Assembly: GCF_004010195.1 (NCBI RefSeq)
Contig: NC_057720.1
Location: 43,399,736-43,463,735 of the forward strand
DNA from: Chiloscyllium plagiosum
Taxonomy: Eukaryota
Length of the DNA: 64,000 nucleotides
Direction: 5' to 3'
A model generated the notes under the pieces. It saw only the letters and a list, made by a program, of their open reading frames with translations. It did no database searches and was not told the DNA's origin. Position numbers and translations under genes: made by a program. How positions within the stretch are numbered: the first letter of the stretch is position 1; every line of letters begins with the position of its first letter. Shown here piece after piece: positions 17,500-63,959 of this stretch.

Positions 17500-17725
17500 T
17501 ACTCTGCAGATGCTGTACATCTGAAATATAAACAGAAAGAACTGGGAGAAAAAAACTCAGTAGATCTGGCAGCTTCAGCACAGAACGAAACCAACTTAAC
17601 ATTTTGAACCTAATCTGGTTTCTTCAGGATGTCAGGATTCTCTGACTCAAAATGTTAAACTCCGGTTCCTCTCTCCATAGAAGCTGCCAGACCTGCTAAG
17701 TTTCTCTATGATTTTGTTCTTATTA
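17500..17725. mobile_element. Old Penelope-like terminal repeat pair in inverted orientation
   Basis: CTCAGTAGATCTGGCAGCTTC...TTAACATTTTGA is mirrored by TCAAAATGTTAA...GAAGCTGCCAGACCTGCTAAG; same family as 23101 and 63650. Confidence 0.7.
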
Positions 17726-18229
17726 AAATCCATTAAACTCCAACTTATTATGAACCAGTCCATATTCAAATTGATCACCAAACTTTACAAACAACATGAA
17801 TCATTCTCTGTTGTTATTCCAATTTAGTGGTCATAGAGCAAATCTAAAGGTACCTTTTGGAGAATCTTCCGAAAGCCACATCACCAATGTTAGCCCATAA
17901 CAAGGTGGAAAGAGGCAAAAAGTATGGTGCTGCAATTGGCATTTGGCTCCTTACTCCCATGTGGAGAAGACCCTAAGTCCCACTGCCCCAAGTAGCTGCC
18001 TGATAACGGCCAAGCCCCTGGAGTGGTATTGAAAGCTGCACTTAATTTTCTCTGCTGGGACCTTCTGATTGAAGGATGTCTCCCTTGGCATGACTGAACA
18101 GTACTCCCCTCAACATGGCGATTTAATTGAAGCACATGCAATGACTTGTTGCATCAGTTATTGGCACAAGTGGAGCATGGTTAACTACAGCAACATGTCC
18201 ACCCTATGACAAGCTAGGAGAAAATAGAG

Positions 18230-18670
18230 AGTTGGGTGCTGGAAAAGCGCAGAAGGTCAGGCAGCATCCGAGGAGCAGGAGAATCGACATTTCAGGCAAG
18301 AGCCCTTCATCAGGAATGAGATTTGTGAGCCGAAGGGGTGGAGAGATAAATGAGAGGCGTGGTAGGTGATGGGTCAGAGAGGAGGGTGGAGAGGATAGAT
18401 GCGAAGGAAGAATGACAGGTAGGACAGGTCATGAGGGCGGTGCCGCATTGGAAGGTTGGAATTGGGATAAGGTGGGGGAGGGGAAGTGAGGAAACTGGTG
18501 AAATTCACATCGATACCCTGGGGTTGGAGGGTCCCAAGGCAGAAGATGAGGCAGTCTTCCTCCAGGCATGGGGAGGTAAGGGAGTGGCGATGGAGGAGGA
18601 CCAGGACCCGCCATGTCCTTGGCTGAGTGGGAGAGGGAATGGTCTTTACAGGAGGAGGACAGCGGAGAGG
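18230..18670 (-). mobile_element. Penelope-like element 3' fragment (GIY-YIG C-terminus plus terminal repeat)
   Basis: Minus frame LEEDCLIFCLGTLQPQGIDVNFTSF matches the end of the Penelope endonuclease, followed by a C-rich UTR and the hammerhead-bearing repeat. Confidence 0.85.
18281..18317 (-). ncRNA. Minimal hammerhead ribozyme motif (CpG-decayed copy)
   Basis: ATTC-CTGATGA-A-GGGC-TCTT-GCCT-GAAA-TGTC-GATTC on the minus strand. Confidence 0.55.
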
Positions 18671-20311
18671 AGGGAAATATATGTCTTGACAAGCTGTTTG
18701 GCTCTGTGTCAGTACAGACACAAATTCATGACCAGTTTTGCCTATTGTGAACCTATGGGTAGGCACTAAGTGAGCGAGCATCCGAAATTGAGTAGTCCTG
18801 AAATGCCTGGTCCAATCCATGAGTTGAGTGCCTCTGTATAGGCACAAAGCATCTTTGCAGCAGTACTGGAATGAGAACTGCTAGAGGGCTCCTATACGTG
18901 GCATTGAAGTGTACTATCAGGAGATCAGAGATATGATGTTGAAGACAGGCTGATGCCAATGTCCATGGCAAGGGTGGAGGTGGTCACTGCTCATATAACA
19001 TGTCCAGAGATGTTGGTGACTGTTTTTTAAGATGGAGATCCAGAAGAGCCAGCAGTGATCTGAATTTGCCAGGTCTGTGCTTTAACTTTAGTGTTGGAAA
19101 TTCTTGTGCCCCAGTTTCTATCAAGTGCATGGTACAATAGGAACCTGCCTATTAATGAGGAGAAATTTGATGTAAATGAGATTAATAATGAGCAACAATT
19201 CCTGTTAATAGATATCTTAATGCTCACAACTGAGAATCACATCTCAACACCCTGAAATCTTTGGAATTTGTTCCAATTTGTTCAGTGATTTGTTCTCCCA
19301 ACATTGGAAAAGGCATCCCTGGACTTCTCACATGATCCTAACAGATTTCTTTTCATAGCCAATGTCATTCAAGGCCTTAAGATTTTTAAAATTTAAATTA
19401 AATTAAAAGATTAAGGTTCAACTCAATTGTGTTTAAGTGGCATGGTAACAAAACATATTTCGTAACTGTGAATGATCCATTATTGAAAATTGAGAAATTA
19501 TGTTGAATTAAATGCAAATAACTCACATTCAAATAATTACATTTATAGCCATTTAAGTTACTATATATGCTGCATATTTCATTAATTATCAAAGTTCCAG
19601 TGGACATTTATGGGTAAAGAAAGTAAATGTAAGAGTTGAATTAGAAGCTCCATGAATAGGTGACTTAGAGCTTACAAGGTGCTTAATCCAAGTAGAAGTC
19701 AATAAACATATTTAGTGCTCATGTTTATACAAACATTTTTCTTGTAGGTTTCAAACCTTGATGAATATTTTTTAATCTGACAATGAACAACAGAGGTATC
19801 CAATCTTTAAGTGGCAAATTAACTCCAGAAAATTGGGCTGTAAGAATTTGGATAACTTAATTGCATTGCTAGGATAGACATATTCAGGTCTCACTTTATG
19901 CTTTTGCACAATACATTTAATCTGTTCATTGTGTGTTTTGCACTACTATATTGGGCCAATTATAAACCAACATTTGATGTTTATTCACTGCCATGCACAA
20001 GTTAATGTGGTTGAGGTTAAACATTGAATTGTGATGCATGAAATATTATTTACTGGAAAGTGCATGAGAACAGATATATTTTCTTGTTGCCAGATGTGAT
20101 AATAGATACCATGTTGCTAGCACACTATGCACAAGATAGCTAGCCTTATTTATTTACAGGTAAAACTACATATAAACATGAAAAGAGACAAAATGTGTTC
20201 AAGGAAAAATAATCAATCATGCAATGATATGAACAGGATGTATTGTCTTTAAACAATGACAGTACTCATAATTCCTGCAATTTCTATCAGTATGTCCATT
20301 GAAGCAGTTTC

Positions 20312-20494: not shown

Positions 20495-23100
20495 CACAAC
20501 ATTCACTTTCACAATGAACATGCTATGAAATAATATCCTATCATTTTTACATTTTTTCTATTAATCCAAAAGATGTTGGGAAATAGTCAATGATCCAGCA
20601 TTATAAGGATATGTCTCACTTGATGTGGTAGTAGTGAAGAGAATTTTCAAATTTCTACTTGGGTCAAATGTTTGATCTCAAAGACAAAGTATACAGTGCT
20701 TAAATAGGACATGAACATTTTTCCTTTTGTCAGCTACAAAATTCCATCTGGATTCCCTAGGAGCCACATAAATTTTATTTGATCTTGTTGAATCTGAATT
20801 TCAGCTTTCAGATATGCTGGTATCATGACAGTCTCAACACTATTTACCCAAGAATTGCAGAGTTAGTCACCAATGCCTAGACTCTGGTCATACTGAAAAT
20901 TAAACCATTGATTGCAAATGCTGTCTTTGAGCAATGACTTACTTCTCCACAGAAGGTTGATTCCAAATTCAATGCATAATTAAACAAGCAGTTTATACCT
21001 TGCTTCAAAATTACTCTTCTGTTCAACAACTTAATACAGAATCCTAATGCAACCTGAGAAATGTAATACAACTATTATTCTTGTGGTGCCTCAATTTTTT
21101 TCTGTGTCCAGCTTCTTGAACGAAGACTCCAGTCATGGATATCTTTTGCCATGATCTGAAAAACTTTTCCTGATGCATCTCCAGCAAGACAAGTTAATTT
21201 AATTGATTTTAAACTTAATACAATGTTGAAACAACGTACACTATATCACTCCCTGTTATTGCTGTTTCAATGTATATGCTTTCCTTTGATCAGAATTTCC
21301 TGTTTTAATTAAAGGTCATTAAGGTGAAATGTTTCTGTCTTCATAGACTTGCTGATTTTTCCAGCACCTGCAGTATTTTGCTTTTGTATTTTTACAATGT
21401 TAGCTGCCTGTAACATCTGAATATTGCTAAAAAGTGATACAAAATAAAAACTTTTCTTCTTATGCTCACGAAGATTAACTCACAAGAAACCAAACTCGGA
21501 GAGGGAAATATGCAACCAACTTGTACAATTTAAAAAGAGGGTATTTTCAAACCTCACAATACATATCCAACATTAGTTGTGATTCAGTTATTAGACAACA
21601 TGGACTAAGTATTACCATTTGTGCTAAGAATTGCATTGGAAACACTGTTGGACCTGCAGTGCAATGTATATACGAGTTACATGCATCAACACAAAGGATC
21701 CCATTCTATGTATGGAAAATAATTTAATTTATTTGCAATTTTTTCTATTAAGGGACAGGAAACTGCCAGTGCATGCTATATTCCCCATGTCAAAACCCTA
21801 AAAATCTAAACCATCTGCCTGATCTAAGATGCCAGCAGAACTGTGATTATACAGTGGGAGGGATTTGTCCCGGAAGTTATCAAAATTGAGTTTGGAGCCA
21901 TGAACAATGGCTTTGGAAACCTTGAAGTCTCGTGGCATCAGGGTCAAATATGGGCAAGGGAAAGGAAACCACCTTCTGATAACCATGAATTGTCTTCCCT
22001 TGGTTATGGTTTTTCATGCTAAACAACATTTGGAGGAAGTATTGAGGGTGGCAAGGATGCAGGATGTTGTCTGGTTCAGGGATGTCAATACCTGTGACCA
22101 GTATTGGCTCAGCAGTAGCAGCAGCAGCAGCACTACTGATTGAGACATAAAGGGCATTGCTTCTAAACCAGGTTTGAGGCAGGGAGTGAGGGAAGCAACA
22201 AGAGGGAAAAACATATGTGACCTCATCCTCACCAATCCGCCTGCACAGATGCATCTGTCCATGACAATTTTGGTAAGAATTAACATTGAACAATGCTTGT
22301 GGATATGAAGTCCCATCTTCATGTTGAGAGTGCCCTCCTTTGTGTGGTGTGGCACTACCACCATACTGGATGCAACAGACACTCTAGCAACTCAAGACTG
22401 AGCATCCATGAGGCGCTGTGGACCATCAACAGCGGCAGAATTCTACTCTAACAAAATCTGTGACCCTATAGCCCAGCATATCCCCCAATCAACCATTACC
22501 ATTAAGCCAGACAATCACCCTTACTTTGCTGAAGAGTGCAGCAAGATATACTAGGAGCAGCACCTGGCATACCTAAACACAAAACGTCAATCTGATGAAG
22601 TTACAAACATACTACTTGCATGCCAAACAATATAAACAGAGCTAAGAGATCCCACAAACAATGGATCAGAACTGAGTTCTGCAGTCCTCTATCATAAAGT
22701 CAAATGTGGGGATGTTCACTGGTGATTCCACAATGTTTAGCACCATTTGTGACTTTTCAGATACTGAAACAGACCATGTCCAAATACAGCAAAAAGTGGA
22801 TAATATCCAGACTTGGGCTGAAATTGATAACATTCACACCACACCAATGTCAAGCAGTGAGTATCTTCAATAAGAGACAATCTAAACACCACTCCTTGAC
22901 ATTCAATAGTGTTGCTATAACTGAATGCTCGACTATACTTTGGTTACCATGGACCAGTGTTGAAGAGGGATTTTAAAGAGAAGACCTGAGTCGTGTTCAG
23001 CAGCATAAATTGATCTTTCTTTGGAGCTCCATACCAATGGAGTGTGGGAGAGGCCTGGAGAGACAAATTCCAAGACACTTTAACTCTCCCAATAAACCTA

Positions 23101-23235
23101 TTCTGAAGAAGAGTCACTAGACTTGAAACATTAACTCTGGATTCTCTCCACAGGTGCTGCCAGACCTCCTGACATTTTCCAGCAAATTCTTTTTGTGTTT
23201 CTGATTTCCAGCATCCATAGTTCTTTTGGTTTCAT
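23101..23235 (+). mobile_element. Penelope-like solo terminal repeat (second family) with a hammerhead-like core
   Basis: CTGAAGA-A-GAGTC-ACTA-GACTT-GAAA-CATT-AACTC followed by CTCTCCACAGGTGCTGCCAGACC...TTCCAGCATCC. Confidence 0.7.
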
Positions 23236-23246
23236 TTTTTTTTTTA

Positions 23247-23514
23247 AGGTTAGATTCCCTACAGTGTGGAAACAGGCCCTTTAGCCCAACAAGTCCACAC
23301 TGACTCTCCGAAGAGCACCCAACCTGACTAATGCACCTAACACTATGGGCAATTTAGCATGGCCAATTCACCTGACCTGCACATCTTTGGACTGTGGGAT
23401 GAAACCGGAGCACCCGGAGCAAACTCTACACAGACAGTTGCCTGAGGCGGGAATTGAACCCGGGTCCCTGGCACTGTGAGGCAGCAGTGCTAACCACTGA
23501 GCCACCATGCCACC
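23247..23514 (-). mobile_element. HE1-type V-SINE (internally deleted)
   Basis: tRNA head with A box TGGCTCAGTGG and B box GGTTCAATTCC on minus, partial V-domain, CR1-like tail GGGCCTGTTTCCACACTGTAG. Confidence 0.88.
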
Positions 23515-24382
23515 CCCAAGTCCAGTTTCTCCCGTTCTATCCAAACTAAATAATATGTTTAAATCAGCTTGTTACAAGGCTGCTATCCAAGCTTCCCTTA
23601 TCAAAAATGTCTGATACTTACATGACTAAGATTTACTTGGTGTCCCACTAAGATTTCTTATAAGGCACTTCCTTATCTTAAAGGCTATGATTCCTGCAGT
23701 GGAATCTGCTGTGTTCAACCAACAATTCTCTTCAGCCACCCCATTATGGTATCTAAACACCACAGGCAGCCATTATATGTTTCCTTCAGCTAATGGCAGC
23801 TCCAACACCAGATACTAAACTGGATTTGTTGTTTCAATAAAGTGGCTACAATAGCAGATCAGATGCTAGAAATACTGCAGTGGGTGACTCACCTCCTGAC
23901 TCTCCACCATCGACAAGGTTCACGTGATATGCGTGATGAAATACTCCCCAACTGCCTGAATGAGTGCAGCTCTAACAATAATCAGGAAGCTTGATACCAA
24001 CCAGAATAAAGCAATCTGCTTGATTGGCACCACCTCCACAAACATCCATTCCCTCCACTACCAATGCCTTGAAGCAGCAGTATGTATTATCTACAAAATG
24101 CATTGCAGAAATTCACCAAAAATCCTTAGACACTACCTTCCACACCCACAACCACTACCATCTAGAAGGACAAGGGCAGCAGATATTTCAGAACTCTATC
24201 ACCTGCAAGTTCCCATCCAAACCACTCGTCATCCTGACTTAGAAATATATCACAGTTCCTTCAGTGTTGCTGAGTCAAAATCCTGGAGTTCCCTCCCTCA
24301 GTGGTATTGTGGGTCGACCTACACCACTTTAGTGGTTCAAGAAGGCAGCTCGCCACCACTTTCTGAAGGCCAACTAGGAATG

Positions 24383-25670: not shown

Positions 25671-26401
25671 GAAATACTTCTTAAAAGTAGTCACTATGGA
25701 CAATTATGTTTTGAAGTATTAGGCAATGGCACACATCCAGAGCAGGAATTAGTATTTGAATTGAATAAATGGTAAAAATTGTTGGTTCAGGATGGGTGCA
25801 CACACAGCTTAGGAAAACTTTGGAACTGCTCCCATTTTCCTTTTTTTCTGAAATATGGCACAATTAAACTTTCAGCAAATTAACAAAAGTGGCCCACAAA
25901 AAGTCTCAGTGACTTTTCCCACTTTATCCTTATTTCAGGAATTAAGTAAATTTTTTGAAATGTAATCTTTTATGCTAAATACTGATCATAACCTGAAGCT
26001 TCGGAGTAGCCACTTGCATCTCTCCTTCCTTTTCTTTCCCTTATACTTCATGGCCAATCCAAACATCATTTCAGCCCTACTCTATGAAACTTCCTCCCTA
26101 AATATTTCTGCTCACTATTTTCATCTTACAACACCATCTCTCAATCCATCTCTCCCATTTACTTCATGGTTACTTTTCCTAGCTTTCCTCACCAGTGTTA
26201 GGCATTCAGTACCTTATCTATTCTTTTCTCTGCACAATTTCAAATGATATGTGTATTGTAATAGGACCAGTTCTATTACAATCAGACATAGTGTCTACTC
26301 AGGAAGGGAATTTCCACTCTATGTTTATTGGAATCCACTTGCAGTAGCAGGAGTGAAATTTCAGGGATGAATGTAGGCATTTGAAATGTTGAATTTTTTT
26401 T

Positions 26402-26712
26402 TAGATTAGATTACTTACAGTGTGGAAACAGGCCCTTCGTCCCAACAAGTCCACACCAACCCTCCGAAGAGCAACCCACCCAGACCCATTCCTCTACATT
26501 TATCCCTTCGCCTAACACTACGGGCAATTTGGCATGGCCAATTCACTTAACCTGCACATCTTTGGACTGTGGGAGGAAACCGGAGCACCCGGAGGAAACC
26601 CACGCAGACATGGGGAGAATGTGCAAACTCCACACAGACAGTTGCCCGAGGTGGGACTTGAACCTGGGTCTCTGAGAGGCAACAGTGCTAACCACTGTGC
26701 CACCGTGCCACC
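26402..26712 (-). mobile_element. HE1-type V-SINE, near full length
   Basis: A/B boxes, V-domain TGTGTGGAGTTTGCACATTCTCCCCATGTCTGCGTGGGTTTCCTCCGGGTGCTCCGG, and (TCTAA)n tail. Confidence 0.92.
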
Positions 26713-26839
26713 CCATAATTGCATGTAGCTTTTAGCATGGACTAGTTAGACTCCATTAAATATTTATAATTTACTTCATTTTCTTAAAAGTAACCTTTAA
26801 CACATATCTAAATACATATGACTTCTTTATATTTAAGAG

Positions 26840-28050: not shown

Positions 28051-28129
28051 GCAAGGAGAAAGAGCTCATTAATAATCCCAGTACAAAGAAACCTTTAGGG
28101 AGAAGTGACTATAATATGGTAGGATTTTA

Positions 28130-31580: not shown

Positions 31581-32257
31581 CATTGTTAAAAGATACAATT
31601 CACCATGAATCATTACAAAATAGAGATGACATGTCTCTTGACATATACTTCACAAAAAATTCACAAAATCAATCAGCTAATTTAATGTTATTAGCTACTT
31701 GCAATTGCACTATGGTTTCATATAAATTCCACTCATAGCTGAAGGGATATTGAAGCCATCTCTGTGTTTTTAATTAAAACTCAATGCCTAGTTCTTTGAG
31801 AAATCAGTGCAGATTGCAGCATAGCAGTTACATATTCACAATCACTCAAAAGGTGGTATCATACATTATTAAATGAACGTTTTGATGAAATATTGTAGAA
31901 ATTATGTGGGAGAAATTTGCAATCTCATTATCTTATTCATAACAAAATATGACAAATATAACAAAAAATTTAAGCGTGTGCTGTGGTCTGAATTTACTTA
32001 GGAAATATACTTGCATTTTATTGTAGTAGTTTTGAGTATTTTCAGTTCTTAAGGTTCACGATGGACTCTAGGTAATCCAACCCAGTTGATTCAACATGTA
32101 CCCCAGGAGCAGTCAGTAGAACTCAAAGTTGAAGTATTTAGAAGTTACAAAAGTTTTTAAAAGCAATATTCTGAACTGAAAATAGAGCCCAATCTATTGG
32201 TTTCATGTTTTAACCATTTTCCTAATCCCAGTTATAATCTCTCCCATCCCTATCTGT

Positions 32258-33061
32258 AAGGTAGAAGACAGGGTGGTGGTGGACGGTGGTTTTTCAGACT
32301 GGAGGCCTGTGACCAGTGGAGTGCCACAAGGGTCGGTGCTGGGCCCTCTACTTTTTGTCATTTACATAAATGATTTGGATGCGAACATAAGAGGTACAGT
32401 TAGTAAGTTTGCAGAAGACACCAAAATTGGAGGTGTAGTGGACAGCGAAGAGGATTACCTCAGATTGCAACAGGATCTTGACCAGATGGGCCAGTGGGCT
32501 GAGAAGTGGCAGATGGAGTTTAATTCAGATAAATGCGAGGTGCTGCATTTTGGGAAAGCAAATCTTAGCAGGACTTATACACTTAATGGTAAGGTCCTAG
32601 GGAGTGTTGCNNNNNNNNNNNNNNNNNNNNNNNNNNNNNNNNNNNNNNNNNNNNNNNNNNNNNNNNNNNNNNNNNNNNNNNNNNNNNNNNNNNNNNNNNN
32701 NNNNNNNNNNNNNNNNNNNNNNNNNNNNNNNNNNNNNNNNNNNNNNNNNNNNNNNNNNNNNNNNNNNNNNNNNNNNNNNNNNNNNNNNNNNNNNNNNNNN
32801 NNNNNNNNNNNNNNNNNNNNNNNNNNNNNNNNNNNNNNNNNNNNNNNNNNNNNNNNNNNNNNNNNNNTGCCAGAGGATGTGGTGGAGGCTGGTACAATTG
32901 TAACATTTAAGAGGCATCTGGATGGGTATATGAATAGGAAGGGTTGGAGGGATATGGGCCGGGTGCTGGCAGGTGGGACTAGATTGGGTTGGGATATCTG
33001 GTCGGCATGGACGGGTTGGACCGAAGGGTCTGTTTCCATGCTGTACATCTCTATGAGTCTA
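32258..33061 (+). mobile_element. Young CR1 (HER1-like) LINE, 5'-truncated, spanning an assembly gap
   Basis: SGVPQGSVLGPLLFVIYINDLD...KFAEDTK; tail GACCGAAGGGTCTGTTTCCATGCTGTACATCTCTATGA; near-identical to 48418-49429. Confidence 0.93.
32611..32867. other. Assembly gap (257 N)
   Basis: Run of N inside the CR1 copy. Confidence 1.
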
Positions 33062-33399
33062 TTAATTTTAAGTACTTGTTAAAAGCAGGTTTTTAAAATA
33101 TTTCCTCCTGAATTACTTTGATTCTAGTTTTAATCAATTGCTTGGTCATCCTTTACAGGTTTTTAAAATGTTTTGAATTCTCAGGGTTGCTACTCTCTGG
33201 CAAAACAGTAAACTGCACTCTTAAATTCAATAACGTTTTCACCACCTCTAGTTGTCTATAGCTGTTTTAAATTTTCTTTATTAATGGAGGTTTTATTCTT
33301 AAAGTATCTTCATGAAGATACATTAATTTAGAAAGAATGTTTGCGAGTTTTTGATTTATAGACATCATTTACTTCAGAGTTTAAATTTTGAACTGAATG

Positions 33400-35859: not shown

Positions 35860-36081
35860 TTGACGAGTGTGGTGCTGGAAAAGCACAGCTGGACAGGCAG
35901 CATCCAAGGACCAGGTGAATCAACGTTTTGAGCATAAGCTCTTTATCAGAAACTCCTGATGAAGAGCTTATAGTCCAAACATTGATTCTCCTACTCCTCA
36001 AATGCTCCCTGACCAGCTGTGTTTTACCAGCGCCACGTTCTTCGACTCCGATCTCCAGCATCTGCAGTCCTCACTTTCTCC
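35860..36081. mobile_element. Penelope-like inverted terminal repeat pair with two decayed hammerhead motifs
   Basis: ~90-bp arms mirror each other around 35950. Degenerate TSD CTATTTTTAGGTGAG (35845-35859) / CTATTTTTGCATGAG (36082-36096). Confidence 0.85.
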
Positions 36082-39000
36082 CTATTTTTGCATGAGCCCT
36101 AGTGACCAGAATAAAGTAATATTTCATCACTTGCAAGGTATTAGGATCTTAGATGCAACGTTGGAATGAACCTGTCTAGGATTTACATTTGTTTATATGT
36201 AAGCAAATATGGTATGACACACTTAGGAGCATAAAATTAATATGTTCCTTTTCAAACAGAAATCAATCTCCTAGATGATTCCTAGAAAAAAAATCTAAAC
36301 AATGCTTTAAATAGACAAAATATATTTTTACTGTAAAAAGACACATGTAGCTGATGTATGTTTAAAAAAAACCTACCTGTTAGCATACCACAAATAGTGC
36401 CATCTACTGCACACCTGTGCTCCTTTGTAATGCTTACTTTTAAACAGAACATAAATTGCAATTCTGACAACACTATAAATTTAGCTAAGTTAACCAATTT
36501 AGAAACACAAGATGTGGTACAAAGTCAATTTAGTACTGCAGTGAAATCTGAAGGCTGAGGGTTAACTGATCTTGGGTGGCTTACATGAAGTGTTTTCCCT
36601 TTGCTTGTACCTAAGTGACCGTAAAATGTAATCCATCACTGACAAGATGAACAAACTCCCAAACCATTCCCAGGCATTTTACACCTGAAAACTATAGACT
36701 GTGCCAATTTAGAAGAATTTTATTTGCTAGAATATCACAGGGTTGTGCACTAAGTGCCAAAGGTCTAATATTGAGGCTCAGCTGTGGAGCTGCAAATACA
36801 GGCATTCCATTCAACAATTTGTTCTCCTTCTTTCCCCAAGACAAAGTGCAGTGATTGCAAATTTTCATTACATGGTCAAACAGGTGACAATAATGAAGGT
36901 CTGGGTTGAGAAAAGCCTTGATGAGGCTTTCTGAGGATTTCACTATTGCGCTGCATCTAGAAATATTCAACACATTGTAAAAAACAAAATTATTTCTATA
37001 GTTTGTAGGTAAATACAACAAATGAGGCCATAAGGAGCATGAATGCTATACTGTTTAAGAAAATCACCAGGACAGATCCATCACAGATGGCCCAGTCAGG
37101 AGTGACCCTCGGAATCTACAATATTGGCTCCAGATTCCATTTACCCTAATGCATCAATGGGTAAGGAAACCCACCTCTGAACAGGTTACTGAGTGAAATA
37201 TGTCAAAAAAAAAAGGAAGAGTACAGACCAGACTGCTGCCTTATGAGCACAGATAAAACTGGTCATCCTTGAGGGGCTGTGGGCCACCATCAGCATAATT
37301 GTGCTTAACCATAATTTGACAACTAATGGCCATTGTGCACCATGTACAAGATACGCCACAGAAACTTACCAAGGCTTAACAGCACCTTCCAAATCTGGAG
37401 GACATAGGCAACAGATGCATGGAAACACCCACGTCCTCAAGTACTGTACTCCCATTCACAAATATCCTGCCATCTTTAAATGAAAACTGTTGCCCCAAAA
37501 TTCCCTTTCTTTGAACTTGCTCCCATGTTTCAAGTTTATATTCATTTTTCCCAAAATTTCATTTTTATGTCTGCTGGTTTTGGTACCAGCCAGAGCACCA
37601 AAAATATCTCCAAGTCATAAACAACATCTGTTATCCTGACTCTAGTGTTATTAGCTTTGCTTTGATCCACATTAGTAACTTTATCAATACCTGACTAGTT
37701 GCAATTCCAGCCTGAATTTCTGCACCTTTCCTCCTTCAAGGTTCTCCTAAAAACCTCACTGACAGAGCTTTGAGTTACACTTCCTAATATCATTATTTGG
37801 CTTGTAATCTCTTTATTGTTTTCAAGTTTGGGATATTGATATTGTTTAAGCAATGAAGGTGATATTGAATTTAGGTAAGAAATAAAGAAAAACAAATCAG
37901 CGTAAAAAAGAAAAAAAGTGAATTTAAATATCTCAAGCAGGTCTGCAGACAGTAAAAAAAGTTTAAAAACAGATTTGTAGTACGCTATATAAGCATACTT
38001 GAATCCAATTATTCTTACAAGTTCAAATGAAGGCTTAAGACAAATATACAGAATTATATTTATTATAAAAACTTTTAACGATTGCAATGTACTTTCAATT
38101 GAAATGTTTATTCTTAATGTCTATCAAAATTATGTCATTGGATACTTATGTTCCCTACATGCAGGTTTCACACTATTTTAAAAGCTAAAACATAAATCTG
38201 AATCGCAAAAATTACTGCAAGTGCTACTTTTTTTTATACGACACTTAGGTACAATAAAGGAACCTGCATGCTTTGCCAAATAACCTGTAAAGTAGTACAA
38301 GGCCAGTTGTACTGGGCAACTTATGAAGCTGTAGACAAAGGTTAAAGAATATATAATGGTAATGACTTTTACTGGTTAAAGGAAAACCAGTATGGTTTTA
38401 AAAGTTGAATGTTTTTCATTAATGTTCAAGATGCAAGCATTGTTTATCATTGGTTAACTTTCATCAACTGGTTTTACTGCATACCAATGCTAAGACTAGC
38501 ACAAGTTACATTTGATATAAGGAAATTCATATGACAAACTGCAATGTTAGATAGCATTTTAAGTTTAGGATTTAAGCAAATTTTCTAATTACAGTTAATT
38601 TTGACATCTCAGTGATAGCAATATAAAAATAACGGATAGTTAGCTTTAAAAATAATGCAAAAAGTTTGGTAGAATTTGTCTAAATTTTACATTTCAAATA
38701 TTGAATACTTCATTTGGTAAGTGGACCAAACATTGTATCACTCTGAATACGGTATTTAGAATTTTATCCAAAACGATAATGTTCCAATAATCCTCTCTAA
38801 ATAAGATGTAGTTCACACAATGCACATCCATAGTTAACATATACATGTAAAACCTCCTTAAAATCTCCTACATCTTTTGCACCAATGTAACCATGAACAA
38901 GATTCAGATATAAATACATAATCAATATCATTCTTAATAATGAACCTCCACATTTTTGCATGCCAAGAAGAAATCTCTACACCCGCTGTATTTCTGCTGC

Positions 39001-45820: not shown

Positions 45821-45929
45821 AGTTTTACATGGGCTGTGGAGTAGGACGTTACAGTTGGTGCTCATCTGCTCTTTCTGTTTATTTCCCATTTTCTTCTTTA
45901 TTTATCCTCCTTGTTCTCCCCTGAGGTAG

Positions 45930-47175: not shown

Positions 47176-49429
47176 TTCTTCTGATTCAGTATGTGGATGT
47201 ACCTACTAGAGAAGTTGCAAACCTTGACCTACTCTTGGGAAATAAGTCAGGGCAGGTGACTGAGGTGTCTGTGTGGGAGCGCTTTGGGGCCAGTGACCAT
47301 AATTCTATTAGATTTAAAATAATGGTGGAAAAGGATAGACCAGATCTAAAAGTTGAAGTTCTAAACTGGCGAAAGGCCAATTTTAACGGTATTAGGCAAG
47401 AACTTTCGAAAGCTGATCGGGGGCAGATGTCCGCAAGTAAAGGGACGGCTGGAAAATGGGAAGCCTTCAGAAATGAGATATCGGGAATCCAGCGAAAGTA
47501 TATTCCTGTTAGGGTGAAAGGAAAGGCTGGTAGGTATAGGGAATACTGGATGACTAAAGAAATTGAGGGTTTGGTTAAGAAAAAGAAGGAAGCATATGTA
47601 AGGTATAGACAGGATATATTTAAAAGGGAAATCAGGAGGGCAAAAAGGGGACATGAGATAGCTTTGGCAAATAGAATTAAGGAGAATCCAAAGAGTTTTT
47701 ACAAATACATTAAGGACAAAAGGGTAACTAGGGAGAGAATAGGGCCCCTCAAAAATCATCAAGCCGGCCTTTGTGTGGAGCCGCAGAAAATGGGGGAGAT
47801 ACTAAATGAGCATTTTGCATCAGTATTTACTGTGGAAAAGGATACGGAAGATATAGGCTGTAGGGAAATAGATGGTGACATCTTACAGAGGAAGAAGTGC
47901 TGGATGTCTTGAAACGCATAAAGGTGGATAAATCCCCAGGATCTGATCAGGTGTACCCTACAACTCTGTGGGAAGCTAGAGAAGTGATTGCTGGGCCTCT
48001 TGCTGAAATATTTGTATCATCAATAGTCACAGGTGAGGTGCTAGAAGACTGGAGGTTGGCTAACGTAGTGCCACTGCTTGAACAAGGTGGTAAGGACAAT
48101 CTGGGAACTATAAACCAGTGAGCCTGATGTCAGTGGTAGGCAAGTCGTTGGAGGGAATCCAATCATGTATTATGAAAGGCAAGGACTGATTAGGGATAGT
48201 CAACATGGCTTTGTGCGTTGGAAATCATGTCTCACACACTTGATTGAGTTTTTTGAGGAAGTAACAAAGAGGATTGATGAGGGCAGAGCGGTAGATGTGA
48301 TTTATGTGGACTTCAGTAAGACGTTCGACAAGGTTTCCCATGGGAGACTGATTAGCAAGGTTAGATCTCATGGAACACTGGGAGAACTAGCCATTTGGAT
48401 ACAGAACTGGCTCAAAAGTAGAAGACAGAGGGTGGTGGTGGAGGATTGTTTTTCAGACTGGAGGCCTGTGACCAGTGGAGTGCTACAAGGATCGGTGCTG
48501 GGCCCTCTACTTTTTGTCATTTACATAAATGGTTTGGATGCGAGCATAAGAGGTACAGTTAGTAAGTTTGCAGATGACACCAAAATTGGAGGTGTAGTGG
48601 ACAGCGAAGAGGGTTACCTAGATTACAACAGGATCTTGACCAGATGGGCCAATGGGCAAATGGAGTTTAATTCAGATAAATGCGAGGTGCTGCAATTTGG
48701 GAAAGCAAATCTTAGCAGGACTTATACACTTAATGGTAAGGTCCTAGGGAGAGTTGCTGAACAAAGAGACCGTGGAAAGTTGCATGTAGATAGGATAGTG
48801 AAGGAGACATTTGGTATGCTTTTGTTTATTGGTCAGCGTATTGAATACAGGAGTTGGGATGTCATGTTGCAGCTGTACAGGACATTGGCTAAGCCACTGT
48901 TGGAATATCGCATGTAATTCTGGTCTCCTTCCTATCGGAAAGATGTTGTGAAACTTGAAAGGGTTCAGAAAAGATTTACAAGGATGTTGCCAGGGTAGGA
49001 GGATTTGAGCTATAGGGAGAGGCTGAACAGGCTGGGGCTATTTTCCCTTGAGTGTCGGAGGCTGAGAGGTTTACAAAATTATGAGGGGCATGGATACGGT
49101 AAATAGACAAAGTCTTTTCCCTGGGGTTGGAGAGTCCAGAACTAGAGGACATAGGATTCGGGTAAGAGGGGAAAGATATAAAAGACCTACGGGGCAACAT
49201 TTTCACACAGAGGGTGGTAAGTGTATGGAATGAGCTGCCAGAGGAAGTGGTGGAGCTGGTACAATTGCAACATTTAAGAGGCATTTAGATGGGTATATGA
49301 ATAAGAAGGGTTTGGAGGGATATGGGCTGGGTGCTGGCACGTGGGCCTAGATTGGGTTGGGATATCTGGTCGGCATGGACAGGTTGGACCGAAGGGTCTG
49401 TTTCCATGCTGTACATCTCTATGACTCTA
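47176..49429 (+). mobile_element. Young CR1 (HER1-like) LINE, 5'-truncated, ORF2 frameshifted
   Basis: LDLLLGN...SDHNSI, QHGF, DFSKTFDKV, GVLQGSVLGPLLF and FADD; intact 3' tail. Confidence 0.95.
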
Positions 49430-50055: not shown

Positions 50056-50361
50056 GGGCGGCACGGTGGCACAGTGGTTAGCACTGCTGCCTCATAGCGC
50101 CAGAGACCCGGGTTCAATTCCCGCCTCAGGCGACTAACTGTGTGGAGTTTGCATGTTCTCCCCATGTCTGCGTGGGTTTCCTCCGGGTGCTCTGGTTTCC
50201 TCCCACAGTCCAAAGATGTGCAGCTCAGGTGAATTGGCCATGCTAAATTGCCCGTAGTGTTAGGTAAGGGGTAAACGTAAGGTGGGTTGCACTTCGGCGG
50301 GTCGGTGTGGACTTGTTGGGCCAAAGGGCCTGTTTCCACACTGTAAGTAATCTAATCTAAT
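50056..50361 (+). mobile_element. HE1-type V-SINE, full length
   Basis: GGGCGGCACGGTGGCACAGTGG (A box), GGTTCAATTCC (B box), V-domain, CR1-like tail and TAATCTAATCTAA end. Confidence 0.94.
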
Positions 50362-51723
50362 AAAAAGTAGGTACCTATGCAGATTGCTAATTTCAGCAAC
50401 AAAGATGTTTACTTCTATCCAAGATTTCACATAGGTGTCTTTACACCTACCCTTGATTCCATCTGTGGACGAACTGCAAGAGACACCTCTAACCTCATTT
50501 TAAGGATGGACATTGGCAAGTTGGATGAGACCTAGAAGAGGTTGCTGATTCCCATTCTCACCAGGTGTGTGCGTGATTTATATAAATCAATATCAATTTT
50601 AAACTAGCGTCACATAGATGTTAGTCTACTTATGTGAAGGGGTTTAATAAATAATAAGGTCAGTCTTTTCAGCACCATGATTTTAAACCAGTATGTGCCA
50701 TACAGCAGATAACTGAAAGCTTCTTGAAATATTAATGTAAGTTTTTTTAAAATATATTAAAGGGATTTATAAGAAGGAATAGAAATCATCAAAAGACATA
50801 AGCTTGTTTCTGGTTTAGAATAATCAAGGAATGACTTTAGTTGAGAAAAACCAAGAGATTGAAAAGACTTTGGGCAGTTCAAAGACCACCTGAATGGATG
50901 TCAGATATCAGTACAGTATCTCTCCTAGAAAAGGAGATTATTCAGAGTAGTTAAGGAAATTGGTTACCCCAGTGAAATAATTTAGTTTCTGAAAATTCCA
51001 GACCAGGAATATTTGGTTAGAATTTGGTTATTCAAAGCTGAGAAAGTCTTAAGATCTCAGTTAAGTGAGGATTCAAGGGAAAGATGTTAATGCTCACAGG
51101 ATAGGAATTACCACTGGTACCTTCAGGCACATGAAAGCTTTTGGTGACCTGTATTTTCAGTCTCTCCTTATGTATCTACATAATATATTCATTTACAACT
51201 TGACATTTGAAGAGACTCTTGAAAGACGAGACATCGTCTTAGCTTGCTTGTTGCAGTTTAATATGAAAGTTAAACCAGAAAAGTGCCAACTTTCCCAGAC
51301 AAAAGTGTAGTACCTTGGGCACTTTGTTACAAAAGGAAGGAGTTACTCCTGACAAGAGAAAATCTGAGCAGTGGGGGAGTGTCCCTAACCTAAGACAGGG
51401 AGGGTACTGCATGGGTTCTTTGGTCTCGATGGATACTCGAGGCTATGACATTTGGCCGCTCCACTCCATGATTTGCTGAAGAAATTGGAAAATTCTGAAG
51501 GACTGGTTGGGGAAGGATATATGAGGCACACAAAATGTCAGAGTTGGACCCCAGCATGAAGAATCCTTTTGGGTGCTCAAGCAAAAACTTGTCTCATAAC
51601 TTGTCCTTGACCACAAAAATTTCCATCTCCATCTCATATTAGGAAGCAATACCTGCTTTCTTGGATTAGAAGTGTTGCGGTCAGAGATCCAAAAGCAGGA
51701 AAATGGTTATTGCTTATACCAGA

Positions 51724-51820
51724 GCTGAAAATGTGTTGCTGGAAAAGCGCAGCAGGTCAGGCAGCATCCAAGGAACAAGAGAATCGACGTTTCGGGCATA
51801 AGCCCTTCTTCAGGAATCTT
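51724..51820 (-). mobile_element. Penelope-like solo terminal repeat inserted into the Gypsy RNase H region
   Basis: Flanked by TTGCTTATACCAGA (51710-51723) and TTGCTATACCAGA (51821-51833); CpGs intact, so a young insertion. Confidence 0.88.
51781..51818 (-). ncRNA. Minimal type I hammerhead ribozyme motif, apparently intact
   Basis: GATTC-CTGAAGA-A-GGGC-TTAT-GCCC-GAAA-CGTC-GATTC: core CUGANGA, perfect 4-bp stem II, GAAA, palindromic ACGU in place of stem III, GUC triplet. Confidence 0.72.
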
Positions 51821-55259: not shown

Positions 55260-57303
55260 CAATAGACAATAGGTGCAGGAGTAGGTCATTCGGCCCTTTG
55301 AGCCGGCACCACCATTTATTATGATCATGGCTGATCATCCACAATCAGTTTCCTGTTCCTGCCTTATCCCCATAACTCTGATTCCACTATCTTTAAGAGC
55401 TCTATCCATCTCTTTCTTGAAAGTATCCAGAGACTTGGCCTCCACTGCCTTCTGGGGCAGAGCATTCCATATATCCACCACTCTCTGGGTGAAGAAGTTC
55501 CTCATCAATGCTGTTCTAAATGGCCTACCCCTTATTTTTAAACTGTGTCCTCTGGTTCTGGACTCACCCATCAGCAGAAACATGCTTCCTACCTCCAGAG
55601 TGTCCAATCCTTTAATAATTTTATACATCTCAATCAGACTCCCTCTCATCTTTCTAAACTCAAGTGTATACATGCCCAGTCGCTCCAATCTTTCAACATA
55701 TTATAGTCCTGCCATTCTGGAAATTGACCTAGTGAACCTACGCTGCACTCCCTCAATAGCCAGAATGTCCTTCCTCAAAAGCCAGAATGTCCTTCCTCAA
55801 ATTTGGAGACCAAAACTGCACACAATACTCCAGGTGCAGTCTCACCAGGGCCCTGTACAGCTGCAGAAGGACTTATTTGCTCCTATGCTCAATTCCTCTT
55901 GTTATGAAGGCCAGCATGCCATTAGCTTTCTTCACTGCCTACTGTACCTACATGCTTGTTTTCATTGACTGTTGTACAAGAACAGCTCGATCTCGTTGTA
56001 CTTCCCCTTAACTTAGCTCCATTTAGATAGTAATCTGCCTGCCTGTTCTTGCCACACACTTATCCACATTAAACTGCATTTGCCATGCATCTGTCCACTC
56101 ACCTAGCCTGTTTAAGTCACCCTGTATTCTCATAACATCCTCCTCACATTTCACCCTGCCACCCAGCTTTATGTCATCAGCAAATTTGCTAATATTACTT
56201 TTAAAGCCTTCATCTATATCATTAATGTATATTGTAAACAGCTGCGGTCCCAGCACCGAACATTGTGGTACCCCACTGGTCACCGCCTGCCATTCTGTAA
56301 GGAACCCGTCTATCACTACTCTTTGCTTCCTGTAAGTCAGCCAAGTTTCAATCCAAGTCCGTATATTGCCCCCAGTACCATGTGCCCTAGTTTTGCTCAC
56401 TAATCTCCTCTGTGGACTTTCAGGAAGCCTTTGATAAAGTCCAAGTACACTACATCCACTGGCTCTCTCTTGTCCATCTTCATAGTTACATCCTCAAAGA
56501 AATTCCAGAAGATTAGTCAAGCATAATTTCCCCTTCGTAAATCCATGTTGACTCTGACCTATCCTGTTACAGCTATCCAGATAAGTCATAATTTCATCGT
56601 TTATAATTGACTCCAACATCTTTCCCACCACTGACGTCAGGTTAACCAGTCTATAATTCTCTGTTTTCTCTTTCTCCCTCCCTTCTTGAAAAGTGGGACA
56701 TTAGACACCCTCCAATCCACAGGAACGGATCCTGAATCTTTAGAACATTAGAAAATGATTACCAATGCGCCCATGATTTCTAGAGCCATCTCCTTAAGCA
56801 CCCTGGGATGTAGACCATCAGGTTCCAGGGACTTATCAGCCTTCAGACCTAACAGTCTATCCAACACCATTTCCTGCCTAATATAAATTCCCTTCAGTTC
56901 ATCCATTACCCTAGATCCTTCAGCCACTATTACATCTGGGAGATTGCTTGTGTCTTCCCCAGTGAAGACAGATCCAAAGTACCTATTCAACTCTTCTGCC
57001 ATTTCCTTGTTCCCCATAATAAATTCACCCGTTTCAGTCTTAAAAGACCCAATTTTAGTCTTAACCATTTTTTTTCTTTTCACATACCTAAAAAATCTTT
57101 TACTATCCACCTTTATATTTTTGGCCTGTTTGCCTGCGTACCGCATTTTATTCTCCACATATTACCTTTTTAGTTATCCTCTATTGTTTTTTTAAAAGTT
57201 TCCCAGTCCTCCGGCTTCTCGTTCATCTTTGCTATGTTATACTTCTTCTCTTTTATCTTTATATAGTCCTTAACTTCCCTCGTCAGCCATGGCTGCCCCT
57301 GCC
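55260..57303 (-). mobile_element. CR1 LINE, 5'-truncated (different subfamily from 47176)
   Basis: SGVPQCSVLGPQLFTIYIND, KFADD, FFTQRVVDIWNALPQ; tail ending CTATTGTCTATTG on minus. Confidence 0.95.
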
Positions 57304-57849
57304 CAGCACATAGAAGATCCATTTCACCTGCTTCATTATATAACTAAGCCCAATCACTCTTCCACTGAAGACTTTGTTAAGACTGTTTAAAGCTGACAAC
57401 TTTAGAATTTAAACTGTACATTTCAAAACAAAATTAGCTATGTATGACAGATCTTGCCTTCGTCTCGAGGTCTTGCTGACTCCATGGTGTCCTCCTCTTA
57501 ACTTTTTCCTCTAGAAGATGGTGCAGTTCTGCAGCATGAAGCAGAACACCATGAATCTTGACACAGGCACTAAACACTCCAGTAACGTTCCCTTTACTTT
57601 TTCCACTGGACATCCTCACCAATTATTTGCTCCTTATCCCCCTTTATCAACAATGTAAAATAAATTCCCAGCAATTTCAGTTGTAAAAATGAGTCACTAA
57701 ACTTGAAATGTTATCTGTTTTTCTCTCTCTCTCTCTCCAGAGATGCCAAATTTATGTAGTACTTTGTTTCTTTTTCAGATCTTCAGTACTTCGCTTTTAT
57801 ATTATTACACAAGTTCATTATATTGGTGTCCTATATCCAACCATCTTCA

Positions 57850-59340: not shown

Positions 59341-60121
59341 ACAAAGGGCAGGACAGTTGATGTTTCAGGCATAAGCACTTCATCAGGAATGTGGAGGGGG
59401 AAGGGGGCTGACAGATAAATAAGGGGTGGGGTGGGACAGGGAAAGATAGATGGAATGGTGATAGGTGGATGCAGGTAGGAGGTGACTGTGATAGGTTGGT
59501 TAGGAGGGAGGAGCGGATAGATGGGTAAGAAGATGGACAGGTAGGTCAGGTCAGGAGGGCAATGCTAAGTTGGATCTGAGATGAAGTGGTGGGTGGGGAG
59601 ATTTGGAAACTGGTGAAATCAATGATGATGCCATGTGGTTGTAGGGTCCTGAGGCAGAAGGTGACATGCTCTTTCTCCAGTCAGTAGGTGCCTTTGATTT
59701 GGCAGTGGAGACAGGGAGTTGAAGTGGTTGGCTACAGGGCTGTGGGGTTGGTTGGACCAGAGATATTCCCTCAACCTCTCCATGAGTTGGCGCTCGGTCT
59801 CCCCAGTGTAGAGGAGGCCACATTGAGGGCAATGGATGCTGTAAATGAGGATCTATCTGTCCATCTTCCTCCCCACCTATCCGCCCCACCCTCCCCACCG
59901 ACCTATCAGAATCACCTACCTGCTTCCACCTACTGTCATCCCACCTACCTTTCCCCCTATTTATCTCTCGGTCCCCTTGCCCCTCCACATTCCTGATGAA
60001 GGGCTTATGCCTGAAATGTAGAATCTCCTGCTCCTCAGATGCTGCCTGACCTGCTGTGCTTTTTCCAGCACTACACTTTTCAACTGGACTCTCTCGCACC
60101 TGCAGTGCTCACTTTCACCTG
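59341..60121. mobile_element. Penelope-like insertion with inverted structure and GIY-YIG remnant
   Basis: Minus frame LIYSIHCPQCGLLYTGETERQLMERLREYL (~59850-59760) is the GIY-YIG motif. ~190-bp inverted arms; exact 11-bp TSD GCTTTCTGAGC at 59330-59340 and 60122-60132. Confidence 0.92.
59989..60024 (+). ncRNA. Minimal hammerhead ribozyme motif
   Basis: ATTC-CTGATGA-A-GGGC-TTAT-GCCT-GAAA-TGTA-GAAT: 4-bp stem I (ATTC/GAAT) and a GUA triplet. Confidence 0.6.
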
Positions 60122-61440: not shown

Positions 61441-61569
61441 CAAATCAAAACATCAAAATAGGGCAGGAAAACTTGAAAGTCAAAATCTCAAAGCTACAAA
61501 AATACAAATGGTCAAAAACTGTGCGCTTTAAAAGCATTACACAATCAATTTTCCAAATTACTCCGATTT

Positions 61570-62478
61570 GTGTCAAAGATTGTGGAGTGGCAGAAAGCAT
61601 AAGGGACTGTCAGAGAATACAGGAAGATATACATAGCCTGCGAGTTGGGCGGAAAAGTGGCAGATGGCTTTCAATCCAGACAAATGCGAGGTGATGCATT
61701 TAGGCAAGTCGAATTCTAAGGTGAATTATACAATGAACGGAAGAGCCTTGGGAAAAGTTGATGGGCAGAGAGATCTGGGAGTGCAGGTCCATTGTACCCT
61801 CTAGGTTGCTGCACAGGTGGAGTGGTCAAGAAGGCATATAGTATGCTTGCCTTCATTGGACGGAGTATTGAGTACAAGAGCTAGCAAGTCATCTTAAAAT
61901 TGTCCAAGACATTGGTTCGGCCGCATTTAGAATACTGTGCACAGTTTTGGTCGCCACAATATCAAAAGAATGTGGACGCTTTGGAGAGGGTGCAGAGAAG
62001 GTTTACGAGGATGTTGCCTGGTATGGAAGGTGCTAGCTATGAAGAGAGGTTGAGTAGGTTAGGTTTATTTTCACTAGAAAAAAAAAGGAGATTGAGGGGG
62101 GACCTGATTGAGATTTACAAAATCATGAAGGGTACAGACCGGGTGGATAGAGACAAGTTTTTCCCAGGGTGAAGGATTCAATAATGAGAAGTCATGCTTT
62201 CAAAGTGAGAGGTGGAAAGTTTAAGGGGGATACACGCGGTAAGTACTTCACACAGAGGGTAGTGGGCGTTTGGAACGCGTTGGCAGCAGAGGTGGTAGAG
62301 GCAGGTACAGTAGGTTAATTTAAGATGCATCTGGACAGATGCATGAGTAGGTGGGGAGCAGAGGGATACAGATGCTTAGGAATTGACCGACAGTTTTAGA
62401 CAGTACATTTGGATCAGCTCAGGCTTGGAGGGCCGAAGGGCTTGTTCCTGGGCCATAAATTTTCTTTGTTCTCTTTGT
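61570..62478 (+). mobile_element. CR1 3' fragment
   Basis: KTLVRPHLEYCAQFWSPQYQKNVDALERVQRRFTRMLPG; tail GGGCCGAAGGGCTTGTTCC...TTCTTTGTTCT. Confidence 0.93.
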
Positions 62479-62958
62479 CAAACTTCTCATCTAATATCCA
62501 TCATCAGATGATAAGAAATTACCTGAAATCAATCTTGGAGAAAATCAGTGTCATTGGTAGAGACTGAAGACAAATTCATTCCTGAGCCAGCAACTCTACT
62601 TCTCTGCCTAGTCATTGTCTAAACTGAACCAGATCATTGGTGACCTAACTGACCCTGAACTGTGCTTCTGACCCCATATCCTCATCATAACTATATGCAT
62701 TTATCTCCCTAATACTATTCACCTCATCCCATCAGCTGCTGAAACTCGGATCTGTCTTTATTACTTCTTAAGTTTATAATCCCAATGGTCAATTTCCCTT
62801 GATAAACTTGAATTCATCTAATGTTCTGCATCTCATATCCTAACTCCAGGCTTGCTTCCCAATCAGCCATTTTTGCTGACCTACATTGACAATGCCTTAA
62901 TTTTAACGATTACATTACTGTTTAAAATGCCTCTGTGACTTTGCCTCTTCCTATCTCT

Positions 62959-63959
62959 TGTGATGGAAGGTGTGTGAAAAACATTATCATGTTTAGTATT
63001 TAAATTGTTTTTGTAAAAAAATGAATGGATGTCAGTTAGTGTTGCAGAAGAGTTTTCAAAAGGCCAGAAATTCATTCTGGAACAGTGAGCTAAATGTACC
63101 AGTTGAAGAAAACACCTGATTGTCAATAAGGGTTTGGGAGAACCCTCAAGTCAGAACCTCTGGAATGTTAACAGATTAACGTTTTTATGCAGTGTAAATG
63201 TTTGAAGTAATTAACCTTGTATTGAATTCAGTTCAAAAAACATCAAAGTTTTATTTGGGAAGAATAAAGAGTGGAGTTCAGAAGAAAGTTTTAGTTTCTT
63301 TATGAGCAGATTTTGGTTCAGAAGTAACCAGTCACTGCAACAGCAGTGTTTTTCTATTTATGATGTTTCCAAGCAAAGAGAAATTGGGACTGAAATTTTA
63401 AGATTGTTAAGAGTGGAAAAACACCAGGCCATCAGAATTATGAAAAATTGATACCATCATAAAGTTCTCTCTTTTGCTCAAGAGAAAGAAACTGAAAGGA
63501 ATCAGTTAATTAGAAGCTTAAAGAGTTGAAATAGGAGTATAAATTCTCTGGGCACGAGTCTCTGTAATGAATAGTGTTTGGAAACAAGTTGATACTTTAT
63601 TTTAATGTTTATATTAAGATCTTTCTAACTCTTAAAATATATAACTTGATTCTGAGGAAGGGTCATCAAACCCCAAACGTTAACTTTGATTTCTCTTCAC
63701 CGATGCTGCCAAATCTGCTAAGTTTTTCCACCAACGTTTGTTTTCGTTTCTTGATTTACAGCATCCACAGTTCTTTTGGTTTTTATTGCTCGATTTGTTT
63801 GTGTAATAACAAATACTTGTTAGAAAGTACCTGCAGTCTCATGTGAATATATTTCAGTGACCAACCACCATATTAATGATAAAAAAAACACATGATGAAT
63901 CAAGCCAGATTTCATTCTTAGATTTGACTTGTCCAGTAGTACCAGCAAGGACCATAACA
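62959..63959 (+). mobile_element. Solo LTR with 4-bp target-site duplication
   Basis: TGTGATGG...CCATAACA termini (7/8 inverted match), CTCT on both sides; removing it restores an L2-type sequence CCTATCTCTGCAATC. Confidence 0.8.
63650..63787 (+). mobile_element. Penelope-like solo terminal repeat (second family) inside the solo LTR
   Basis: CTGAGGA-A-GGGTC-ATCA-AACCC-CAAA-CGTT-AAC...GATGCTGCC...CAGCATCCACAGTTCTTTTGG; same family as 23101. Confidence 0.75.

Follow-up and report, generated by a model that had tools for sequence, protein, structure and literature searches.

We analysed a 64,000-nucleotide stretch of the Chiloscyllium plagiosum genome, hereafter the window (assembly GCF_004010195.1, contig NC_057720.1, positions 43,399,736 to 43,463,735), that carries repeated copies of a hammerhead-ribozyme motif. 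An original prediction, made from the letters of this stretch, had named nine coordinates with hammerhead motifs belonging to two Penelope families, A and B. A motif was present at all nine (9/9), and profile hidden Markov models (HMMs) matched the window arms with E-values of 1e-39 to 1e-9, which argues against chance. In total, the HMMs identified 10 hammerhead arms (six of family A and four of family B) in the window, with most A copies on the minus strand. These arms represent seven insertions, as three loci (17.5 kb, 35.9 kb and 59-60 kb) each hold two arms joined head to head and flanked by duplications. No match to Rfam was found in the window at E-values up to 1, and these motifs therefore have no model in that library. 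Judged from sequence, the window motifs are genuine minimal hammerhead-ribozyme sequences, lying at the head of short, mostly decayed copies of two related families of Penelope-like elements (PLEs).

We located each copy by its C3 (core position 3), and positions within an insert (-4, +90 and so on) are counted from it. Only one window copy, 51813(-), passed the strict structural descriptor. This young copy of subfamily A1 occupies 51722..51817 (-), starts at -4, lacks a tail, has a predicted GUC cut after 51786 and is surrounded by a ~9-nt duplication at 51714/51824; copies 97-100% identical to it are spread over the genome. Two further copies, 18313(-) and 59993(+), passed the relaxed descriptor, which allows wobbles. 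The former passed this descriptor only; it spans 18228..18620 (-) and comprises a GIY-YIG C-terminal fragment (~18469-18620, from translation and tblastn), a 3' untranslated region (UTR) and a hammerhead with a predicted cut after 18286, in which two CpG changes have given G-U wobbles. The latter belongs to a long inverted pair with a 15-nt duplication at 59326/60118. The left half (59342..59800, -) holds a GIY-YIG C-terminal fragment, a 3' UTR and a decayed hammerhead (C3 59386), and the right half (59830..60120, +; HMM) holds a 3' UTR, the hammerhead with C17 changed to A, and a tail. By tblastn, the copies at 18.3 kb and 59.4 kb matched the family A endonuclease at 57% and 64%, respectively. 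The remaining A pair, at 35.9 kb, is bounded by a 9-nt duplication at 35844/36081 and joins an arm at 35860..35953 (-; C3 35949), with stem II GAGC/GCUC and mutated core G8 and G12, to a tailed arm at 35954..36085 (+; C3 35956), in which the G of GAAA is lost (CAAA); both were placed by HMM and alignment.

Family B forms one pair, with a candidate 9-nt target-site duplication at 17477/17737. Its left half (17504..17630, -; C3 17627; HMM E 2e-13) is a decayed hammerhead with stem II and GAAA broken, and its right half (17643..17735, +; HMM) is 5'-truncated within stem II and lacks CUGA. A short B copy with a tail at 23099..23236 (+; C3 23103; E 5e-39) has stem II GAGUC/GACUU and a palindrome broken to ACAU, and another short copy at 63648..63785 (+; C3 63652; E 1e-29) has a GGGUC stem II with one broken pair and, again, CAAA in place of GAAA. 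The HMMs also matched, at E 3e-5 each, a B fragment from downstream of the hammerhead at 9354..9416 (-), which the original prediction had missed, and a weak B-like fragment at 57678..57746 (+).

Membership in the Penelope elements was borne out by linkage to reverse transcriptase (RT) and GIY-YIG endonuclease (EN) sequences. Longer relatives of the 51813 copy extend back into the GIY-YIG domain, and locus L201 carries RT, GIY-YIG and the A motif in that order (Pfam RVT_1 1.3e-6, GIY-YIG 0.0035). A CxxC ahead of YIG and two histidines are visible in the GIY-YIG domain; the family B protein pieces are decayed. The A motif lies ~190 nt past the end of GIY-YIG and, in L242-L266, ahead of the open reading frame (ORF), which is the position of a pseudo-long terminal repeat (pLTR). 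Family B is joined to PLE protein at L044, L048 and L055, and its 35-41% protein identity to A confirmed that the two are separate families. The A and B HMMs each match the other family; the two are therefore homologous lineages and not independent witnesses. B is the older family, because its closest genomic relatives are only 84-87% identical.

The RT-EN linker reads CX4CxxC in both families (CNCKKCKTC in A; CNHRRCNTC and CNDRRCNTC in B). According to the parts of PMC8557442 available to us (a scope that applies to the other papers cited below as well), a CX2-5CxxC linker occurs in Neptune and Nematis elements, not in Penelope/Poseidon. By linker and host range, the clade of A and B is likely to be Neptune; we favor it over Nematis because vertebrate PLEs are Neptune or Poseidon in a 2026 preprint (bioRxiv 10.64898/2026.07.22.740005). 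Beyond the linker, the elements share with EN+ PLEs of these two clades (PMC8557442) the order RT then GIY-YIG, the CxxC between motifs, the two histidines, 5' truncation, an inverted arm and a 30-40 nt tail on one end. Indeed, a tail on one end, an inverted 5' arm and a target-site duplication were all found among the copies of this genome.

For genome-wide abundance, we sampled 120 stretches, each 10 kb long and placed at round coordinates, from large contigs of the 3.56-Gb assembly, unplaced contigs excluded (1,158,029 non-N bases). The structural descriptor found 80 intact motifs in the sample, compared with 0, 0 and 1 in three Markov controls. Of the 422 arms that the HMMs detected in 111 of the 120 stretches (A 213, B 104, C 72, D 17, E 16), 295 cover the core; the reversed sample sequence gave 0 HMM matches. 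Extrapolation to the genome with bootstrap intervals gave 1.30 million arms (1.13-1.47), 246,000 relaxed motifs (194,000-298,000) and 166,000 strict motifs (122,000-210,000), an intact-motif density of ~47-69 per Mb. The very large copy number extrapolated from the window was thus upheld by the 1.16-Mb sample, the earlier figure being low if anything.

As these counts indicate, three further families, C, D and E, accompany A and B. Family C combines a GGAGC/GCUCC stem II with an AGCU palindrome; stem II has 7 bp in family D and reads GGGU/ACCC in family E. Family C (L073:2609(-), L096, L149, L198), which has no copy in the window, has a predicted cut after CUA or CUU, an RT ~30% identical to that of A and a clear TATAAA ~30 nt ahead of its 5' ends. 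In family D (L088, L137, L142, L168), one subgroup has a mismatch inside the 7-bp stem II. In contrast to A-C, its 5' ends do not accumulate at helix I (13 copies scored), and most copies reach >120 nt upstream. Within A, subfamily A2 (L075, L081, L087, L107, L165) is very young (4% from its consensus); its loop reads CUGU and its helix I is fully paired, and the larger subfamily A1 has a helix I U-U mismatch where A2 pairs U-A. At L198, an A element lies inside the ORF of a C element, and more A and C pairs occur within 8 kb.

All subfamily consensuses retain the catalytic core (CUGANGA, GAAA, UH and a helix II of at least 4 bp). In the genome sample, 79 of the 80 descriptor matches have an extra base between positions 9 and 10.1, and pair 10.1-11.1 is G-C or a CpG-decayed G-U in 126/138 A copies and 35/61 B copies. 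The helix III loop is absent, and 15.2-16.2 is self-complementary, reading ACGU in A, B, D and E and AGCU in C. Helix I has 4 bp in B, E and A2 and three of four pairs in A1 and A3, where a U-U mismatch occurs; double changes are seen at all four pairs. The claim that A and B share the core, an extra A, GAAA and ACGU holds at the family consensus but not copy by copy, as only one window copy is strictly intact. Likewise, the tails quoted after stem II agree with the consensuses, but GAAACGTCGATTC is exact in only 1/6 A arms and GAAACGTTAACT in 0/4 B arms. The quoted stem II strands needed correction: AACCC at 63652 comes from a broken pair, GACTT from CpG decay, and the B stems are GGGUC/GACCC and GAGUC/GACUC.

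The idea that most damage is CpG decay did not stand, as CpG transitions make up 138/293 core substitutions (47%) and 199/776 substitutions over the whole motif (26%). CpG sites in the core mutate ~3.7 times faster than other sites (0.256 vs 0.069). We also observed a block ~+45 to +80 from C3 (A1 alignment columns 64-72), GATGCTGCC...TTTTCCAGC, that is conserved across A, B and E as strongly as the core; it may serve as a signal for protein binding or for the RT start, or form a short upstream ORF.

We built consensi from genomic copies, forming clusters on the sequence downstream of the ribozyme only. Stem II of family A has the consensus GGGC/GCCC in all seven clusters (7/7), plus a minor GAGC/GCUC group; before CpG decay, two clusters of family B have GAGUC/GACUC and two have GGGUC/GACCC. 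The counts of GC/GU/AC/AU at pair 10.2:11.2 were 112/4/5/5 in A (Fisher p 1e-4) and 16/6/3/24 in B (Fisher p 1e-5). The proposed compensatory change from G-C to A-U in stem II is thus real within each family. Since it is seen within A and within B separately, this swap appears to have arisen at least twice. In a test set of 81 of 208 A/B/E copies (no more than seven from any cluster, chosen on their downstream sequence), helices I and II together had 81 double-changed cells, compared with 30.3 after shuffling (0/500 shuffles as high) and 8-25 with slid partners. These statistics include the relatedness of copies, and independent events are few. A selected RNA structure, as originally proposed, is supported by the covariation across copies, but selection acted on master elements and not on the window copies; covariation is a record of selection on the masters only.

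The ends of the copies point to how they were made. The 3' ends cluster in two peaks, near +90 and +126 from C3. Among 35 rows of young head-to-head pairs, drawn from the genome sample and targeted searches (one L050 row duplicated), 25 combine a long and a short arm, and shared flanks are mostly 11-18 nt. We equate the long-plus-short ends with the PLE tail, tied to two internal RT start sites in PMC11167929. For 5' ends, we used arm-free references, because shared inverted arms would mimic upstream homology. Removal of four self-duplicate short references lowered the B peak from 27 to 25 and left A and C unchanged; we dropped copies that stopped short of +40 or whose junction contained an N or coincided with the edge of a stretch (A 23/213, B 0/101, C 0/70), and family E had no reference in this analysis. 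The 5' ends fell at -10 to -1 in 68/190 A, 25/101 B and 29/70 C copies, compared with 12, 4 and 4, respectively, over the 50 nt upstream. Solo copies without an inverted arm also peak at the helix I edge (23/86 in A, 18/76 in B). By contrast, we found no significant excess of 5' ends within 2 nt of the cut site (A 8, B 5, C 0; p 0.07, 0.70 and 1.0, respectively). Of 29 scored copies that continue into the ORF (L260 was not scored), four were dropped for N gaps; the 25 gap-free copies start at -8 to 0 (nine), further upstream (three) or further downstream (13), with 0 at the cut site.

Uncut RNA is likely the template, because copies start just ahead of the core and not at the cut site, and we infer from the sequence that -4 is the transcription start. 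An initiator match has its A at -4 in 53/62 long A copies and 9/10 long B copies, with none there in C, and TATA[AT]A lies upstream in 3/10 B, 9/11 C and 9/13 D copies. A TATA box plus initiator has been proposed for a rotifer pLTR (PMC3846280), and Drosophila Penelope is TATA-less (PMC2377424). RNA reads from a related organism depart from the element at -4, +85/+90 and +124, with 140 loose ends at -4. We rejected a splice acceptor at -4, as no AG is present there in A or C, and an ORF running through the pLTR from an AUG at +46 (one copy, L224), as L259 has a stop in that frame.

The pile-up at -4 could instead mark a processing point, either an endonuclease cut of new DNA or a polymerase stall at the folded hammerhead, an explanation that we regard as rather unlikely. 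The Anolis PLE endonuclease favors ATT (PMC11167929) and family A has ATT at -4 without a clean TATA box; moreover, many junctions are palindromic fold-backs, which have been read as self-priming on an antisense template (PMC3846280). However, ATT is missing in B (AGTT) and C (CCAC), whose ends nonetheless accumulate at this edge, solo copies peak there too, a stall would be expected on the 3' side of the structure and not on its 5' side, and the TATA spacing of ~30 nt in B and C agrees with the observed ends.

Our preferred reading, to which we assign a probability of about 0.8, is that these are minimal type I hammerheads in the terminal repeats of two related PLE families, likely Neptune, and that they were amplified because any reverse transcription that starts just downstream also copies the ribozyme, which likely lies within the RNA's first 32 bases. 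Transcription would begin at an initiator-like TCA(+1)NTYC, whose A, located 4 nt ahead of CUGA, would also begin helix I. Copying then begins at one of two internal sites, ~+90 and +124, as the genomic ends observed here show; the mechanism is taken from PMC11167929. Copying to the 5' end of the uncut RNA would yield 95-130-nt units, often two in head-to-head orientation, only one of them tailed, inside a ~14-nt duplication. By analogy with related ribozymes, two motifs on master transcripts would pair via ACGU and exchange their helix I strands. Cleavage, probably aided by protein, would follow GUC in A and GUU in B and would take off a capped leader that precedes the ORF. Inserted copies then decay, CpG fastest, as observed.

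Several observations weigh against this reading. Five window copies fold no better than shuffles (single-strand folding, z 0.3-0.9), and helix I barely forms in cis (p 0.04 or less). The double hammerhead was not the lowest-energy state when short consensus pairs were cofolded, and we did not use these energies as support. The youngest A subfamily has the U-U mismatch in helix I. Stem pairs rank high but not top by mutual information (11th and 15th of 4471), because subfamily structure drives many column pairs. Both Pfam scores at L201 lie slightly under the curated cut-offs. The A bin at the cut site has twice the neighbouring rate of 5' ends (p 0.07), and TATA[AT]A was found upstream in 0/62 long A copies. 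Finally, the RNA reads, from a single-cell poly(A) library of the related organism that is unsuited to starts or cleavage, show no start or end pile-up, and 93-94% of them continue into unlike flanks with both strands covered, as read-through would.

A second explanation is that the motif is retained because it binds protein or acts as a promoter, and that it cuts in vivo rarely, if at all. Copy starts show no excess at the cut site, and the most successful A subfamily tolerates the helix I mismatch. The Anolis hammerhead ribozyme (HHR) is dispensable for insertion in vitro, depends on protein for cutting and has no RNA-seq ends at its site (PMC11167929), and related minimal HHRs (min-HHRs) cut poorly (PMC4209133). 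Nevertheless, five families keep all catalytic core bases, the NUH triplet and a self-complementary 15.2-16.2 while their stems covary, and family C has swapped ACGU for AGCU, a pattern that fits selection for catalysis in dimers. We consider this explanation unlikely. That the short units belong to a non-autonomous family, a retrozyme or a relative of short interspersed elements (SINE-like), replicating from its own short or circular RNAs is highly improbable: most copies comprise ~100-130 nt and little else, and animal retrozymes derive from PLE pLTRs (bioRxiv 10.64898/2026.07.22.740005), but the window has no tandem motif-bearing units, short copies lack an upstream promoter, long RT/EN-bearing copies share the same ends, and copy lengths grade continuously into ORF-bearing copies.

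Returning to the proposed dimer cutting on master transcripts, structural reasoning indicates that the GAAA and the UH that pair in a double hammerhead belong to different RNAs; helix I is therefore also intermolecular. Dimer cleavage of minimal hammerheads is reviewed in PMC6765202. The original prediction had proposed A/B heterodimers because both families expose ACGU. The palindrome is indeed shared, but helix I is swapped as well, and only cleavage of A by B is predicted to pair. In predicted consensus cross-pairing, an A enzyme strand on a B substrate has mismatches at 2/4 helix I pairs, one of them beside the cut; a B enzyme on an A1 substrate keeps four helix I pairs, two as wobbles; E pairs with A1 at four helix I pairs; and pairing fails for C at helix III and for D at helix I. 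An antisense arm close to a motif would fold back on it; such an arm lies within 300 nt in 40/80 intact motifs of the sample, so that the majority of genomic copies are likely to be inert. More tentatively, we suggest that promoter and ribozyme may overlap, such that +1 would be the first base of helix I, dimer cleavage would decap the RNA by removing a 32-nt leader, uncut RNA would be inserted, and helices I and III would form a partner code (C and D orthogonal, B and E cutting A, A not cutting B). We regard this extension as possible but doubtful.

Other features of the window include a DMRT5/DMRTA-type gene at 4377-6981 (-), with a DM domain exon at 6529-6981 and a DMA plus DMRT5_DMB exon at 4377-5255 (Pfam), and a tandem array of 35-nt G-rich units at 45927-46749 that is unrelated to the hammerheads. 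A SINE-like repeat of ~300 nt occurs in three copies (23238-23515, 26394-26713 and 50056-50366), one of which abuts the 3' end of the family B copy at 23.1 kb. Fragments of long interspersed elements, which we take to be CR1-like, lie at 32186-33082, 47163-49429 and 55285-57161, with RVT_1 at 48114-48917.

Every feature in the original prediction is already described for the min-HHRs of metazoan PLE pLTRs by Cervera and de la Pena 2014 (PMC4209133), as far as the available text of that paper goes. The motifs share with them a type I core, no helix III loop, an extra base between 9 and 10.1, G10.1-C11.1, a palindromic 15.2-16.2 and a helix I of 4-5 bp, and also the presence, within one genome, of several covarying families made up mostly of truncated single copies, along with close opposite-strand pairs. 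By contrast, helix II has 4-5 bp here and 7-8 in the Schistosoma min-HHR. Published motif counts are ~4,000 in coelacanth and ~9,000 in Xenopus (PMC4209133), compared with 170,000-250,000 here, a rough comparison as the descriptors differ. Two supplement files of PMC4209133 (file 1 lay outside the scope) do not mention shark, Callorhinchus or skate. PAc, a Poseidon element of Anolis carolinensis (PMC11167929), likewise has two internal RT starts that define the tail, an HHR at the pLTR-ORF junction and an uncut template. However, PAc belongs to another clade and its ORF starts inside the HHR, whereas the long A frame at L259 has its Met ~160 nt after the motif; the 5'-end pile-up at helix I seen here does not appear in the available part of the PAc account.

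Non-LTR retrozymes (Li et al. 2026 preprint) also have type I HHRs on short PLE-derived vertebrate units. Retrozymes are defined by tandem HHR units, whereas the units here are dispersed singles or head-to-head pairs. Indeed, we found no head-to-tail tandem in the window, and the same-strand neighbours of 22/80 sample motifs, at 0.24-4.5 kb, are separate insertions. The available part of a whale-shark preprint reports PLE expansion in introns. In a search that left Lunse et al. 2017 and most supplements outside, we located no paper on shark PLE hammerheads, pLTR starts at helix I or heterodimers.

These results add a cartilaginous fish to the genomes known to contain PLE hammerheads; the density here is well above the vertebrate counts published so far. 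A cheap read-out is offered by the young copies, which number in the thousands, as their 5' ends indicate that uncut RNA was inserted and predict the transcription start. Five co-resident families with differing helix I and III strands provide a ready matrix for cross-family dimer cleavage in trans, and the overlap of start site and ribozyme and the one-way partner code are testable extras beyond the known kind. If this overlap holds, insertion of uncut RNA would explain the ~200,000 intact motifs in this genome, and older families could police the youngest one through one-way trans cutting.

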